Shown here piece after piece: positions 6,228-10,333 of a stretch of DNA of 24,000 nucleotides. Location of the stretch: NCBI RefSeq assembly GCF_015058625.1, contig NZ_SVCA01000009.1. The stretch is one strand, 5' to 3'. The stretch is from Selenomonas ruminantium (GTDB lineage: Bacteria; Bacillota; Negativicutes; Selenomonadales; Selenomonadaceae). The notes under the pieces were generated by a model. It saw only the letters and a list, made by a program, of their open reading frames with translations, was not told the DNA's origin and searched no databases. Made by a program: the position numbers and the translations under genes. How positions within the stretch are numbered: position 1 is the first letter of the stretch; every line of letters starts with the position of its first letter.

Positions 6228-7136
6228 ATGCTGCATGGGATAATTGATATTGGATCCAACACCATTCGCATGGCGGTGTATCTCATTGAGGGCGGCCATT
6301 TTGAACAGCTGATGAAACGCAAGGAAACTGTGGGACTGGCTTCCTATGTGGAGGACGGCATTATGCAGCAGGAGGGCATAGACCGGGCGGTGGAGACACT
6401 GCAGGAATACAAGAAACTTCTGCAGTGTTTCAATATTACCCAGGTGGATGCTTTTACCACAGCGGCTTTGCGCAATGCCCAAAACAGCCGACAGGCCGTA
6501 GGGGAAATCGAAAGCCGCACAGGCATAAAAATCCGGGTTATCAGCGGTGACGAGGAAGCCACCCTGGATTTCATCGGCGCTACCCACAGCCTCAATAATG
6601 CCTCAGGGCTCTTAATTGATATTGGCGGCGGCAGTACGGAAATCGTCACTTACCGCAACCGTCAGATTCAGTACAAGACCAGCCTGCCCATTGGCTCCTT
6701 GAGCTTTGCCAAGAAATATGTGAGTTACGTCCTGCCCACAATGAATGAATGTCTGGAAATGTACGGTGAGGCGGAGGCTACCGTTGGGGCTGCTGCGGAC
6801 TTCATCAACATCTGCGAGGCGGAAATCGTGGGCATTGGCGGCACCTTCAAAGGGGCCTGCGCCCTGAATAATGAGCTCTTCAATCTTCCCGCAGCCAATC
6901 GGCGTCTGGAAACGAAAAATATCCGTCCCATTATCGGCAACTTCATCGGCGATTTGGGCATGACTCAGGAGATGGCTGTGGCGCTGATGCGCTCCGTGCC
7001 GGAGAGGATACAGACCATTATCCCGGGGCTGGTCATTGCTAATGTGCTGGCAAGGCGGTTTCAGAGTCACTGGATTACCTATAGTGACTCCGGGGTTAGA
7101 GAAGGGTATATTTACAGTCATATTATTGACAAATAA
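6228..7136 (+). CDS. Ppx/GppA-family phosphatase (exopolyphosphatase-like, single N-terminal module)
   Basis: It carries the ASKHA-fold signatures IIDIGSNTIRMAVY, ISGDEEA and LLIDIGGGSTE. Confidence 0.85.
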   Translation: MLHGIIDIGSNTIRMAVYLIEGGHFEQLMKRKETVGLASYVEDGIMQQEGIDRAVETLQEYKKLLQCFNITQVDAFTTAALRNAQNSRQAVGEIESRTGIKIRVISGDEEATLDFIGATHSLNNASGLLIDIGGGSTEIVTYRNRQIQYKTSLPIGSLSFAKKYVSYVLPTMNECLEMYGEAEATVGAAADFINICEAEIVGIGGTFKGACALNNELFNLPAANRRLETKNIRPIIGNFIGDLGMTQEMAVALMRSVPERIQTIIPGLVIANVLARRFQSHWITYSDSGVREGYIYSHIIDK

Positions 7137-7138
7137 AG

Positions 7139-7170
7139 AAAAAGCATTTGCCTATTACTAGGGCAAATGC
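7139..7170 (-). terminator. Hairpin with a U-tract on the minus strand (proposed end of the small-peptide mRNA)
   Basis: GCATTTGCC (7144-7152) pairs with GGCAAATGC (7162-7170). On the minus strand it is followed by U5 (complement of A 7139-7143). On the plus strand it is followed by TATAATAACG, which is a poor U-tract. Confidence 0.5.
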
Positions 7171-7176
7171 TATAAT
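7148..7176 (+). promoter_or_regulatory. Candidate promoter of an antisense small RNA
   Basis: TTGCCT (7148-7153), an exact 17-nt spacer, then consensus TATAAT (7171-7176). Confidence 0.5.
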
Positions 7177-7182
7177 AACGGT

Positions 7183-7273
7183 AAAGAAGGTGCCGCCTAG
7201 CGGTCGCCCTCGGTTAGATTTTCATATTATAAAAACCGCCGAAGTTTGCGAGGCTAGGGCGGTTTATTTTTTT
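7183..7273 (+). ncRNA. Candidate antisense (antitoxin-like) RNA of about 90 nt
   Basis: It would start about 7 nt after the TATAAT box and end at the hairpin 7233-7265 plus TTTATTTTTTT. It contains no ORF. It is fully complementary to the 3' region of the minus-strand small-peptide transcript. Confidence 0.4.
7233..7273. terminator. Bidirectional hairpin terminator shared by convergent small transcripts
   Basis: AAACCGCC (7233-7240) pairs with GGCGGTTT (7258-7265). A5 lies upstream and a T-rich run (7263-7273) downstream. Confidence 0.7.
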
Positions 7274-7326
7274 ATCTCTATAAGGATGAGCAAAACTAGA
7301 AGTAATACAACGATTAACTCATTCAT
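7264..7326 (-). CDS. 20-aa hydrophobic peptide MNELIVVLLLVLLILIEIKK (candidate type I toxin or small membrane peptide)
   Basis: The ORF runs from ATG 7326 to TAA 7264. An SD GGGGG (complement of 7334-7338) lies 7 nt upstream. A strong minus-strand promoter is upstream, and a hairpin starts at the stop codon. The peptide is below the ORF-track size cutoff. Confidence 0.5.
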   Translation of the reverse strand: MNELIVVLLLVLLILIEIKK

Positions 7327-7381
7327 AGGCGAACCCCCAGTTGAGGGCAAATATTGACCGCCAAACAGCACCTTTAGCTAT

Positions 7382-7409
7382 AGTATAACAGTGTGTATAG
7401 TGATGTCAA
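7382..7409 (-). promoter_or_regulatory. Promoter of the small-peptide transcript
   Basis: On the minus strand: TTGACA (7409-7404), a 16-nt spacer, then TATACT (7387-7382). Confidence 0.6.
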
Positions 7410-7448
7410 TTATAAGATACAGAATAAGCCAGGCGATAGCTTGGCTTT

Positions 7449-7477
7449 TTGCTTTTTGAGCGTAGAAATGATATAAT
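7449..7477 (+). promoter_or_regulatory. Candidate gyrA promoter
   Basis: TTGCTT (7449-7454), a 17-nt spacer, then TATAAT (7472-7477), about 55 nt upstream of the gyrA start. Confidence 0.5.
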
Positions 7478-7533
7478 AAAGTGTTGATTTTTAGCTAATT
7501 GGTTATGTAAGAAATAGATTATGAGGTGAGATT

Positions 7534-9963
7534 GTGGAGTTTGAACAGGGAAAAATTGTCCCCGTCAATCTGGAACACGAGATGAAGAACTGCTACATCG
7601 ACTATGCGATGAGCGTTATCGTGGCTCGTGCCCTGCCGGATGTCCGGGACGGTTTGAAGCCGGTACATCGCCGTATCCTCTACGCCATGCAGGAAGCCGG
7701 CATGGGGTCCGGCAAGCCCTACAAGAAGTCGGCGCGTATCGTCGGCGAAGTTTTGGGTAAATATCACCCCCATGGTGATAGCTCCGTTTATGATGCCATC
7801 GTCCGTATGGCGCAGGATTTCTCCATGCGCTATATGCTGGCTGACGGCCACGGCAACTTCGGTTCTGTCGATGGTGACCCGGCGGCTGCCATGCGTTATA
7901 CGGAAGTCCGTATGTCCAAGATTTCCGAGCTCATGCTGCAGGATATCGACAAGGAAACCGTGGATTTTGTGCCCAACTATGATGAGTCCTTGAAGGAACC
8001 GTCGGTACTGCCGTCAAAGTTCCCGCAGCTGCTCGTCAATGGTACTTCGGGTATCGCCGTAGGTATGGCAACCAATATCCCGCCGCACAATATGCGGGAA
8101 GTCATTGACGGCACGCTGATGCTCATTGACAATCCGGATACGACCATTGAGGAACTCATGACGGCCATCAAGGGGCCGGATTTCCCCACGGCAGGTCTTA
8201 TCCTGGGCAAAGAGGGCATTAAGCAGGCTTATATGACGGGCCGCGGCATCATCAAGATGCGCGCCAATGCCCATATCGAAACCATGAGCAACGGCAAACC
8301 TCGTATCGTGGTTACGGAACTGCCGTATCAGGTCAATAAGGCACGTCTGATTGAAAAAATCGCTCAGCTCGTGCGTGACAAGCAGATTGAGGGCATTACG
8401 GATTTGCGGGATGAGTCTGACCGCAACGGTATGCACATCGTTATTGATTTGCGCCGTGATGCCAACGCCAATGTCATCCTGAACCAGCTCTTCAAGCACA
8501 CGCAGCTGCAGGACAGCTTTGGTGTCATCATGCTGGCACTCGTGGACGGCAAGCCGCAGGTTTTGAACCTCAAGCAGGTGCTCCATTACTACATCAAGCA
8601 TCAGGAAGAGGTCATCACCCGCCGGACGCAGTACGAACTCAAAAAGGCCGAAGCCCGCGCCCATATTTTGGAAGGTTTGACGATTGCACTCGACCATCTG
8701 GATGCCGTCATTACGACCATCCGCGAGAGCCGTACGGCAGATATCGCCAAGGAAGCCCTGATGTCGGGCTTCAAGCTTTCCGATAAGCAGGCACAGGCCA
8801 TCCTCGACCTCCGTCTCCAGCGCCTGACCGGTCTGGAACGCGAAAAGATTGAGGAAGAATATCAGGAAACCTTGAAAGCTATCGAAGAATACAAGGCGAT
8901 TCTGGCGGATGAACAGAAAATCCTGAACATCATCAAGGAAGAACTCACGACGGTGAAGGAAAAGTACGGTGATGACCGCCGCACGAAACTCACCATTGAC
9001 ACTTCGGAAATCGATGTGGAAGACCTCATCGCCGAGGAAGATGTGGTCATTACCCTCACCCATAACAACTACATCAAGCGGATGCCGCTCGACACCTACC
9101 GCCGCCAAAACCGCGGCGGCAAGGGCATCAAGGGCATGGGCACGAAGGAAACGGATTTTGTGGAAAACCTGCTGATTACCACAACCCACCACACCATCCT
9201 GTTCTTTACGACCCGCGGCCGCGTCTACAGCCTCAAGGCTTACGAGATTGCCGAATCCAGCCGCACGGCCAAGGGCACGGCGATTATCAATCTGCTGCAG
9301 CTTGACCAGGGCGAAAAGATTACGGCGGTCATTCAGGTCAAGGGCTTTGACCCGGATAGATACCTCTTTATGGCTACCCGCAAAGGTATTGTGAAGAAAA
9401 CCTCTCTGTCCGAGTTTAGCAACCTGCGCAAGAACGGCCTTAACGCCATCAACCTCGATGATGATGACGACCTCATGGGCGTTAAATTCACCGATGGCGA
9501 AAGCTATCTGATGCTCGGCACGAAGCTCGGCAAGGCCATTGCCTTCTCCGAAGATGATGTGCGTGCTATGGGCCGTATGGCCCGCGGTGTCAAGGGCATT
9601 ACGCTGGCTGATGGCGATGAAGTGGTCGGCATGGATATCCTCGTGCGCAATGCCGAAGTCCTGACCGTTACGGAAGGCGGCTATGGCAAGCGCACCAGCA
9701 CCGAAGAATACCGCGCACAGACCCGCGGCGGCAAGGGCCTCATCAACATGAAGGTAACGGAAAAGACCGGTCAGGTCGTAGGCATCAAGGTGGTTCGTCC
9801 CGAACACGAACTGATGCTCATAACCACCGACGGTATCGTAATCCGCACCAACGTATCCGATATTTCCGTCATCAGCCGTAATACGCAGGGCGTAAAGCTC
9901 ATGACCACGGCAGAAAATGACAAGGTGGCTTCCATGGCTACTCTGGAGCAGAAGGAAGACTAA
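7534..9963 (+). CDS. gyrA: DNA gyrase subunit A
   Basis: The protein is 809 aa. It starts [32 protein letters not shown] and carries the QRDR-type [17 protein letters not shown] and the active-site region AAMRYTE. C-terminal beta-pinwheel repeats are present. The start is GTG with RBS GAGGTGA. Confidence 0.97.
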
Positions 9964-9964
9964 A

Positions 9965-10333
9965 ATGAAACCTATTGCGCATATAAGTAAGAAGGTTATT
10001 GATGCATTAGGTTTGGATATTACCGAAAATACACCGATATACTTAGGAAAAAGTAATATTGAACATATGAAACAGAAGCACTCCGCTGATTATGATGAGT
10101 ATGGAGATGTTATAGCTGATATTTTAAATCAGCCGGAATATGTTGGTAAAAATCCTAAGGATGATTCAATAGAGTATGTGCGTGAGTATAAGCGTGATGA
10201 TGACGAATTTGTCAAAGTAGCAGTACGAATTTCATTGAAAGGCCGGTACTATGCACGTTCGTTGTATGTATTAAGTGCTAATCGTGCGCGGAATTTCATA
10301 CGCAAAGGAACATTAAAGGATTTGACAAAGTAG
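9965..10333 (+). CDS. Small AT-rich protein resembling PBECR-type (Barnase/EndoU/ColE5/RelE-like) nuclease-fold domains
   Basis: ATG 9965 lies 1 nt after the gyrA stop, with RBS AAGGAAG. The ORF-track start at 9917 overlaps gyrA and is unlikely. The pattern IYLGKSNIEHMKQKH...ILNQPEYVG...DSIEYV...VKVAVR...YYARSLYVL matches my recollection of PBECR domains from phage and conjugative-element proteins. I have not verified this by search. Confidence 0.55.
   Translation: MKPIAHISKKVIDALGLDITENTPIYLGKSNIEHMKQKHSADYDEYGDVIADILNQPEYVGKNPKDDSIEYVREYKRDDDEFVKVAVRISLKGRYYARSLYVLSANRARNFIRKGTLKDLTK

Follow-up and report, generated by a model that had tools for sequence, protein, structure and literature searches.

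A candidate type I toxin-antitoxin module encoding a 20-residue peptide in the ppx-gyrA spacer of Selenomonas ruminantium, with relatives in other Firmicutes

The ppx-gyrA spacer and its predicted transcripts

We analyzed 24,000 nucleotides of Selenomonas ruminantium DNA (NCBI RefSeq assembly GCF_015058625.1, contig NZ_SVCA01000009.1; hereafter the window) and, within it, an element in the spacer between ppx and gyrA that is probably a type I toxin-antitoxin (TA) module, in which a gene for a 20-residue hydrophobic peptide on the minus strand faces a predicted antisense RNA gene on the plus strand. A preliminary description, based on the sequence alone, had proposed a module of this type with a convergent 3'-overlap layout. 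Direct inspection found every sequence feature it listed at the coordinates claimed, almost base for base, and its proposal is supported by the recurrent architecture, purifying selection on the open reading frame (ORF), compensatory changes and conserved antisense promoter reported below.

The spacer is 397 nt long. Upstream, ppx encodes a 302-residue Ppx/GppA protein on the plus strand (6228-7136) and ends with its stop codon at 7136; downstream, gyrA begins on the same strand with a GTG at 7534, and the module lies between the two. On the minus strand, a promoter at 7382-7409 consists of TTGACA (7409-7404), a 16-nt spacer and TGtTATACT (7390-7382), matching 11 of 12 consensus positions plus the TG extension in a promoter scan. 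A 49-nt leader, counted from the predicted transcript start near 7375, precedes an ORF of 20 codons plus stop (7264-7326, minus strand) that was read directly from the sequence and encodes MNELIVVLLLVLLILIEIKK. Seven nucleotides ahead of its ATG (7326-7324) lies the Shine-Dalgarno (SD) sequence GGGGG (7338-7334), which is itself part of a local hairpin at 7334-7348, seen directly in the sequence, where the anti-SD GCCCUC (7348-7343) is separated from it by a 4-nt loop and can pair with GGGGGU. Promoter, leader, SD and ORF all sit where they had been placed before. The earlier remark that none of the module appears among program-called ORFs applies to the peptide ORF itself, but not to a mechanical 35-codon GTG ORF (7371-7264) that encloses it. 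The predicted full-length peptide mRNA (7139-7375, about 236 nt) would end at a terminator, T2 (7139-7170, minus strand), with the hairpin GCAUUUGCC / GGCAAAUGC at 7170-7144 followed by U5, a sequence present as first claimed; both transcript ends are placed from the promoter and terminator positions. No second copy of the element was found within the window by peptide-pattern or nucleotide-profile searches.

The two ends of this predicted mRNA are complementary. Its 5' arm, AAGGUGCUGUUUGGCGGUC (7356-7374, minus strand), starts 1-2 nt past the predicted transcript start and pairs with 7205-7187 over 19 uninterrupted base pairs (bp). The complete 3' arm (GAGGGC + GACCGCUAGGCGGCACCUU, 7187-7211, minus strand), to which the antisense RNA would likewise pair by its 5' end, extends this by 6 bp, and the 25-bp pairing of 7374-7356 and 7348-7343 with 7211-7187 put forward in the preliminary description was recovered as 19 + 6 bp, four of them G·U. 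Across 300 dinucleotide shuffles of the spacer the longest helix had a median of 10 bp and a maximum of 16 bp. The claimed strand specificity was also borne out, the longest helix being 19 bp in the minus-strand RNA and 12 bp in the plus-strand RNA. The 236-nt minus-strand transcript folds with a minimum free energy of -82.6 kcal/mol (z = -5.9), 11 kcal/mol better than its plus-strand complement (-71.8 kcal/mol, z = -4.05).

Convergent to the peptide gene, a plus-strand promoter at 7148-7176 (TTGCCT, 17-nt spacer, TGcTATAAT) has its -35 box within hairpin T2 and carries, beyond the boxes listed earlier, a TG extension. The predicted antisense RNA, a putative antitoxin (7183-7275, plus strand), would end at the intrinsic terminator T1 (7234-7275), composed of a hairpin at 7234-7264 followed by TTTATTTTTTT, with the U-tract at 7265-7275. 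Its ends, likewise set by promoter and terminator, give a length of about 91-93 nt, in line with the ORF-less RNA of about 90 nt first proposed. Its complement in the mRNA comprises the final 3-4 codons of the peptide ORF, T1, the spacer and the 3' arm. T1 had been called a shared bidirectional terminator. This holds for the plus strand, where folding predicts an outer stem of 8 bp, an inner stem of 5 bp and UUUAUUUUUUU, but not for the implied symmetry: on the minus strand there is a 7-bp stem with a 17-19-nt loop, and the inner stem and long U-tract are confined to the plus strand. The minus-strand tail past T1 is only UUUAU in most homologues. Both T1 and T2 were missed by a simple terminator scan because their loops exceed its 8-nt limit. 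A plus-strand ORF of 69 codons (7148-7357) was rejected as a product of the antisense RNA; its start lies upstream of the transcript start and its frames are broken in homologues. Separately, ppx has no U-tailed terminator of its own ahead of T1 (7137-7275, plus strand), so ppx mRNA probably ends at T1; its 3' untranslated region would then carry the complete antisense sequence and be a second source of antitoxin-like RNA.

Homologous copies in Selenomonadaceae and Clostridia

Homologues were collected with two pattern scans. The first was applied to one genome per species (n = 185,579 species) using a degenerate peptide pattern in which the start was followed by two unconstrained codons, a run of thirteen NTN codons, a further unconstrained one and then NTN, before two Lys/Arg codons and the stop. 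Among its 85 matches, approximately 27 share the SD, the IKK-stop ending and a CCGC hairpin (7 from Selenomonadaceae and ~20 from Clostridia), and the others are low-complexity sequences or in-frame segments of proteins. The Selenomonadaceae matches derive from the S. ruminantium metagenome-assembled genomes (MAGs) RUG12654, RUG13114 (two contigs), RUG14411 and SRR1267595_bin.75, from Selenomonas sp. AE3005 and from 'Veillonellaceae' RUG179, with peptides of the form MNELI..EIKK or MEQLI..ELKK. The Clostridia matches (Oscillospiraceae, Lachnospiraceae, Ruminococcus, Acutalibacteraceae and unnamed Clostridia) encode M-[DEN]-[DEY]-(13 hydrophobic)-x-IKK and have a strong SD and the CCGC hairpin directly past the stop. 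The second scan searched metagenomes for the last codons plus the start of T1 (RTAGAGMTWAAAAARTAAMCCGC), yielding 8 further Selenomonadaceae copies and one false positive. Relationships were then assessed with nhmmer profiles rather than with a covariance model of the ~250-nt element. A profile of 12 homologues matches the window at 7374-7132, and the profile of the Selenomonadaceae alignment matches the Clostridia copies at E = 1e-12 to 1e-4, indicating that the copies of the two clades are homologous at the nucleotide level.

Across the 12 distinct Selenomonadaceae copies, a block is conserved and the flanks differ (copies are denoted below by locus numbers with the prefix L where they must be told apart). 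Read along the peptide strand, the block comprises the -35 and -10 boxes, the 5' arm, the hairpin of GCCCUC and SD, the ORF, T1, the 3' arm GAGGGY-GACCGCYRGGCGGCACC, the motif ATTATAGCA and T2. Both boxes of the peptide promoter are kept in all of these copies, and the 5' arm begins 1-3 nt past the predicted transcript start; the Clostridia copies inspected have TTGACA-17-TATAAT/TATACT upstream of the ORF. The SD lies inside a hairpin in every homologue, while its sequence (GGGGG or GAGGUG) and the loop vary. T2 is kept in 10 of the 12 Selenomonadaceae copies, being not evident in L094 and L104, and a terminator follows the antisense promoter in the three Clostridia copies inspected for it (L067, L072 and L083). 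In Clostridia, duplexes of the 5' arm with a segment located 27-75 nt beyond the stop have energies of -25 to -52 kcal/mol, the one weaker case being the tandem copy L041b (-9 kcal/mol).

The copies occupy many different sites. Six of the Selenomonadaceae copies lie beside gyrA as in the window, one beside ppx and the others elsewhere. Four copies are found in the Oscillospiraceae MAG EPI_MAG_00074 and two in RUG13114, and tandem pairs occur in L041, L045 and L052. An Acutalibacteraceae MAG (L074) has three copies within 8 kb (770-870, 6450-6586 and 7188-7300, minus strand), with peptides of 21 and 24 residues (MNIDLLMIFLILLIVYKITKK and MVDLMIPLFLVLFMILLIILSIKK), which implies that the family is wider than the fixed 20-codon search pattern. 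At L088 (3159-3274, minus strand), a full copy is preceded, ~150 nt upstream, by an orphan 3' half that lacks the ORF but retains T1 (its 3' side), the 3' arm, T2 and the antisense promoter, apparently the remnant of a module reduced to its antitoxin. In copy number and arrangement, these loci look like type I modules. The most divergent Selenomonadaceae copy (L094 157-409 and L104 516-770, plus strand) is immediately followed, on its own strand, by an ORF starting MKIAVFDSGIGG that we take to resemble a glutamate racemase gene (murI-like); the promoter region of this copy falls within a long palindrome, CCAAAGCTATTATAGCA...TGCTATAATAGCTTTGG.

BLAST against plasmid and phage collections found neither a DNA nor a peptide match, although the peptide searches were probably blinded by the low-complexity filter. 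Viral contigs gave no match to one pattern and 22 to another, all of which were repeats or in-frame protein segments without an SD or CCGC hairpin.

Conservation of the module and its surroundings

Variable sites in the peptide ORF of the 12 Selenomonadaceae copies are distributed 14/0/15 over codon positions 1/2/3. The window and L017 differ by 8 synonymous changes and 1 non-synonymous change (synonymous proportion, pS, 0.58; non-synonymous proportion, pN, 0.02), and the mean pN/pS is 0.22 (values of 0.04-0.22). Evidence of ORF conservation free of scan bias comes from the metagenome matches only. Among these, L100, recovered without constraint on codons 1-15, shows 7 synonymous changes to 1 non-synonymous change relative to the window, and L102 and L106, recovered via the 3'-end pattern alone, behave similarly and keep the ORF. 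Judged by this pattern of substitution, the peptide ORF evolves as a coding sequence under purifying selection.

RNA structure was evaluated in one alignment per clade, covering the 12 Selenomonadaceae copies and six Clostridia copies, in place of a single alignment because helix geometry differs between the subgroups. For Selenomonadaceae, the long-distance helix, T1 and T2 are paired in 93.3% of alignment cells compared to 36-49% when the partners are slid by 1-3 columns, and five pairs show double changes (10 cells), a value reached in 2 of 500 shuffles. The main helix of the long-distance pairing is 91% paired with two double compensatory changes (U-A to C-G and G-C to A-U in the L094/L104 lineage), and its GAGGGY/GCCCUC extension is 100% paired. 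Compensatory C-G to U-A changes occur in the T1 stem, and T2 has a U-A to A-U swap in L106. With no structure supplied, RNAalifold recovers the long helix, T1, T2 and a further helix of the AUG region with codons 14-17. The Clostridia alignment contains the same four modules in different sequences, with 96.2% of cells paired and 9 double-change pairs (0 of 500 shuffles), including three swaps in T1 and, at two neighboring positions in the long helix, exchanges between A-U and G-C; the equivalent of the SD hairpin, GACACC/GGUGUC, is 97% paired. Both alignments are small, and the covariation is consistent and independent in two clades rather than a large-sample statistic. Across copies, cognate 5'/3' arm duplexes average -40 kcal/mol compared to -29 kcal/mol for non-cognate ones (11 kcal/mol more stable). 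The preliminary description expected compensatory changes to maintain the 25-bp complementarity, and they do so in two separate clades.

Two positions of the long helix are U·G in 12 of 12 Selenomonadaceae copies, and a third alternates between U·G and C-G. Because the invariant wobbles would be mismatches on the other strand and in DNA, the helix belongs to the peptide-sense RNA, and simple terminal repeats become an unattractive explanation for the arms. The preliminary description had also held that the anti-SD is shared between the local hairpin and the long-distance helix, making the two mutually exclusive. Both pairings are possible on paper in the Selenomonadaceae clade, where GCCCUC can pair with GGGGGU or GAGGGC, but switch behavior did not emerge: folding of the 12 homologues gave no consistent opening or closing of the SD, and an SD on/off switch was dropped as a demonstrated feature and retained as no more than a possible one.

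The antisense gene is conserved in parallel. Ten of the 12 Selenomonadaceae copies retain the motif ATTATAGCA (reverse complement, TGCTATAAT), the exceptions at the antisense -10 box being TAGAAT in L100 and TATAAT without the TG in L106. A near-consensus antisense promoter lies directly past the 3' arm in 15 of 17 Clostridia copies, with a -35 box of TTGACA or TTGACT, a spacer of 16-18 nt and a -10 box of TATAAT, TAGAAT or TATACT; the other two copies have weaker matches. Conservation of the plus-strand promoter proposed at the outset is thus nearly universal. The predicted antisense RNAs of homologues are 91-97 nt long, or 118-119 nt with an insertion. No reading frame of the antisense RNA is open across homologues, all three frames being broken in several copies, and the frame lying codon for codon opposite the peptide ORF is closed by the reverse complements of TTA and CTA. 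L087 (~200-240) and L105 contain a ~25-nt insertion within the 3' arm that forms an extra hairpin, GCCUAGCG...CGCUAGGC, and lengthens the predicted antisense RNA to ~118 nt.

Two further properties tie the antisense RNA to the mRNA. First, the U-tract of T1 is the reverse complement of the peptide codons AUA-AAA-AAA-UAA, so that the IKK-stop ending and the antisense terminator share the same nucleotides; this probably explains the near-invariance of the stretch in Selenomonadaceae and Clostridia. Second, the antisense RNA starts AAAGAAGGUGCCGCCUAGCGGUCGCCCUC and the mRNA starts AAAGGUGCUGUUUGGCGGUC...GCCCUC, sequences that differ solely by transitions at wobble positions, and on this basis the 3' arm is expected to be held more tightly by the antisense RNA than by the 5' arm.

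Around the module, the ppx-gyrA junction is variable among the relatives L011, L012 and L013 (Ppx 86-92% identical): in L011 and L013 synteny is lost and a dCache/GGDEF gene follows ppx in place of gyrA, and the L012 spacer contains a different large hairpin. Ten metagenome contigs with an identical Ppx have an identical spacer in which no gene is called, and consequently hold no comparative information. Between the toxin promoter and the gyrA promoter (TTGCTT, 17-nt spacer, TGaTATAAT, about 7452-7480) of the window lies an intrinsic terminator at 7426-7457 (plus strand), AAGCCAGGCGATAGCTTGGCTT plus a T-run, which would block plus-strand read-through ahead of gyrA; at its place L017 has a different hairpin with T6 that takes in the toxin -35 box. 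No gyrB adjoins gyrA in the window. An ORF with PBECR3/PBECR2 nuclease domains (9917-10333) abuts or overlaps the gyrA 3' end, and a skipping-rope RNA (RF02924; 10364-10446, plus strand; 51 bits against a gathering score of 36.7) lies just downstream of it.

Interpretation and alternatives

We consider the element to be a chromosomal type I TA module with a 3'-overlapping antisense RNA, apparently of a new family, and give this reading a probability of roughly 75%. The element combines a small hydrophobic peptide in the size range of type I toxins (<60 residues; here 20 codons with their own SD and start), an mRNA structure that would restrict translation (the 5'-3' helix and SD sequestration, from sequence and folding), a convergent antisense gene (promoter and strand-specific terminator conserved, no ORF) and a patchy, multi-copy, locus-independent distribution. 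At the level of sequence comparison, conservation, covariation and codon pattern establish how the element is built, that its ORF is coding, which strand the helix belongs to and that the antisense gene has a promoter and a terminator. The doubt that remains concerns whether the putative toxin is toxic and whether both predicted RNAs are made as modelled.

Under this reading, a constitutive-type promoter would drive the ~236-nt mRNA for a single-helix membrane peptide. As the conserved 3' arm is required in this mRNA, transcription should read through T1, which is weak on the minus strand, to T2. The transcript would then adopt a closed form without translation, held by the 19 + 6-bp 5'/3' helix, the local hairpin around the SD and pairing of the AUG with the end of the ORF. 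Opposite the 3' arm, the TGnTATAAT promoter would give a convergent RNA of ~92 nt that stops at T1 and matches the last third of the mRNA with full complementarity. At its 5' end this RNA resembles the mRNA 5' arm, with C or A in place of wobble U or G, and should win the competition with that arm for the 3' arm. By analogy with txpA/RatA and bsrG/SR4, for which effects of RNase III and on the SD are known, the duplex may lead to RNase III-type cleavage and decay, keep the SD closed, or both, and the peptide would be made only upon loss of the short-lived antisense RNA. The layout of such Gram-positive 3'-overlap systems is described in PMC8594479 and their phenotypes in PMC10730256. Translation might conceivably be switched on by processing of the mRNA, like that in hok or aapA1, but this is no more than a guess.

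Several observations weigh against this interpretation. T1 must be leaky on the peptide strand, by inference, and in the window it has U5 on that strand, where some transcripts may end without the 3' arm. The proposed SD switch is weakened, both because the 6-bp anti-SD extension of the long helix is absent in the Clostridia relatives and because constrained folding of the 12 homologues predicts the SD to be mostly paired in the free, antisense-bound and 3'-truncated forms alike (mean unpaired probability 0.02-0.39 across modelled states). Conservation of the ORF is partly built in, as the genome scan required 20 codons and a T at every second codon position, and covariation in Selenomonadaceae rests mainly on the one divergent L094/L104 lineage. 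Finally, L012, whose Ppx is 87% identical, is the closest relative with ppx-gyrA synteny intact, yet its 326-nt spacer is unrelated and gives no orthologous control. The locus is therefore dispensable and outside the conserved core of the ppx-gyrA locus, as is usual for type I modules.

Database searches assigned the module to no described family. No Rfam 15 family reached its gathering score for the element in the window and 20 homologous loci; the Rfam matches at threshold (skipping-rope, NiCo and tRNA) all lie outside it. The only RNA-family match, a weak one, was to the BsrG model (RF01412), whose gathering score is 55 bits; it scored 18.2 bits (E = 0.057 over the 801 nt searched) and aligned the outer helix of the model to the long-distance helix. 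Five family peptides gave no match or noise in Pfam-A and NCBIfam (E of at least 0.13, with scores well under the cut-offs), where a 20-residue query has little power, and ten peptide variants, including that of the window, are absent from a collection of 15 billion proteins. The family was not described in the literature searched, of which coverage was incomplete, and 'undescribed' is used here in the sense of not found there. T1TAdb lists 24 families, and neither 'Negativicutes' nor 'Selenomon' occurs in its text (PMC8594479). A review of Clostridia has C. difficile toxins of 34-59 residues only.

The bsrG/SR4 module of the Bacillus subtilis SPbeta prophage resembles the present one in its convergent RNAs that overlap at the mRNA 3' end, its 5'/3' closing helix and partly sequestered SD in the toxin mRNA and its antitoxin acting from the 3' end. 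SR4 is said, in work by Jahn & Brantl from 2013, to promote decay and tighten the SD helix. BsrG, however, has 38 residues and no similarity to the present peptide, and the Rfam score excludes membership; bsrG/SR4 is prophage-borne, whereas the present family was not found on prophage or viral contigs, and only in the latter is the antisense terminator U-tract built from the last codons of the toxin. Similarly, txpA/RatA, bsrE/SR5, yonT/as-yonT, SprG/SprF and the C. difficile CD-toxin/RCd pairs have a 3'-side antisense RNA with partial overlap reaching into the ORF (PMC8594479), and toxins of this Gram-positive 3'-overlap group share a hydrophobic sequence with a charged C-terminus (PMC6563280). 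They differ in length (28-60 residues compared to 20 here), show no sequence or profile similarity and are, in several cases, encoded on prophages; none of the txpA/RatA-type families is reported from Negativicutes according to the T1TAdb paper (PMC8594479).

More distant parallels are found in other families. In fst/RNAII (par of pAD1), the RNAs are convergent with a shared terminator hairpin, and 5' structure plus a long-range helix limit translation. However, both par RNAs end at the terminator and interact via 5' direct repeats, whereas the present mRNA must read through T1 and would use plain cis-antisense pairing, and its peptide has no Fst-type motif or hidden Markov model match. The ibs/Sib systems of Enterobacteria are comparable in toxin size (IbsA has 19 residues; bioRxiv 10.1101/2025.05.26.656083), near-complete hydrophobicity and multiple copies per genome, but belong to a different phylum, lack sequence similarity and have a Sib RNA spanning the whole ibs ORF (PMC8594479) rather than the last 3-4 codons. 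In hok/Sok and aapA1/IsoA1, the full-length toxin mRNA is kept inert, as proposed here, through a 5'-3' long-distance interaction and SD sequestration (PMC6733600), but the antisense RNA of those systems pairs with the 5' portion of an mRNA already processed at its 3' end, whereas the present one would pair with the 3' member of the long helix. In how it works, the module would correspond to the Gram-positive 3'-overlap families, with an Ibs-sized peptide, and it is a member of no family tested.

Because the conservation evidence demonstrates selection on the peptide and the RNA structures, and not toxicity, the same data would also fit a benign small membrane protein, for instance one that regulates a membrane complex or serves it as an accessory subunit, with a cis-antisense RNA tuning its expression and no TA behavior; non-toxic examples are numerous among bacterial membrane proteins of ~20 residues (reviewed in PMC10730256). 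We regard this as unlikely. The copies lie at unrelated loci without a conserved neighbor gene, form multi-copy sets and tandem arrays, are patchy among close relatives and include the antisense-only remnant of L088, and the mRNA is locked by three separate structures, habits that fit selfish type I modules rather than an accessory subunit. The unrelated insertion sites, several copies per genome and 19-25-bp inverted repeat could alternatively recall a mobile element resembling a miniature inverted-repeat transposable element (MITE), with the repeats as transposase termini and the ORF and promoters incidental. This is very improbable given that the repeats are internal, with the peptide promoter outside one arm and the antisense promoter and T2 outside the other, that the arms pair on one strand only, the invariant U·G wobbles being mismatches in DNA, and that the ORF has a strict coding pattern; no target-site duplication or transposase was seen, in a search for these that was unsystematic. 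The notion that the spacer is a cluster of terminators and promoters serving ppx and gyrA, with the small ORF and long helix due to chance, can draw on T1 being the sole plus-strand terminator with a U-tail that follows ppx and on the insulation of gyrA by the terminator at 7426-7457, but is scarcely credible and already contradicted by the comparative data, since the same block is found away from both genes, the helix is longer than in all 300 shuffles and the ORF is conserved with synonymous changes.

The type I interpretation can be carried further, tentatively and at somewhat less than even odds as a whole, to an unrecognized and phylogenetically broad type I TA family with IKK toxins of ~20 residues in anaerobic Firmicutes of the rumen and gut, the first in Negativicutes. 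Such a family would have two design features undescribed in others: an antitoxin whose 5' end mimics the mRNA 5' arm and displaces it from its 3' partner, and Lys-Lys-stop codons that double as the antitoxin terminator U-tract, making the peptide C-terminus and the antitoxin 3' end one co-constrained sequence.

The peptide gene is invisible to annotation, having gone uncalled on 10 contigs and left ten variants out of the protein collection, and yet many Firmicutes of the rumen and gut carry the module, frequently more than once per genome. If the peptide is toxic, the module would add one more family to the 24 in T1TAdb (PMC8594479), extend type I systems to Negativicutes and provide an Ibs-sized toxin for studies of membrane toxins. 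It also offers a clean study case, in which one stretch is both coding sequence and antisense terminator and one RNA arm has two near-identical rival partners. More broadly, it flags loci that may stabilize genomic regions or affect persistence or phage tolerance in rumen bacteria, and that may render cloned fragments toxic.

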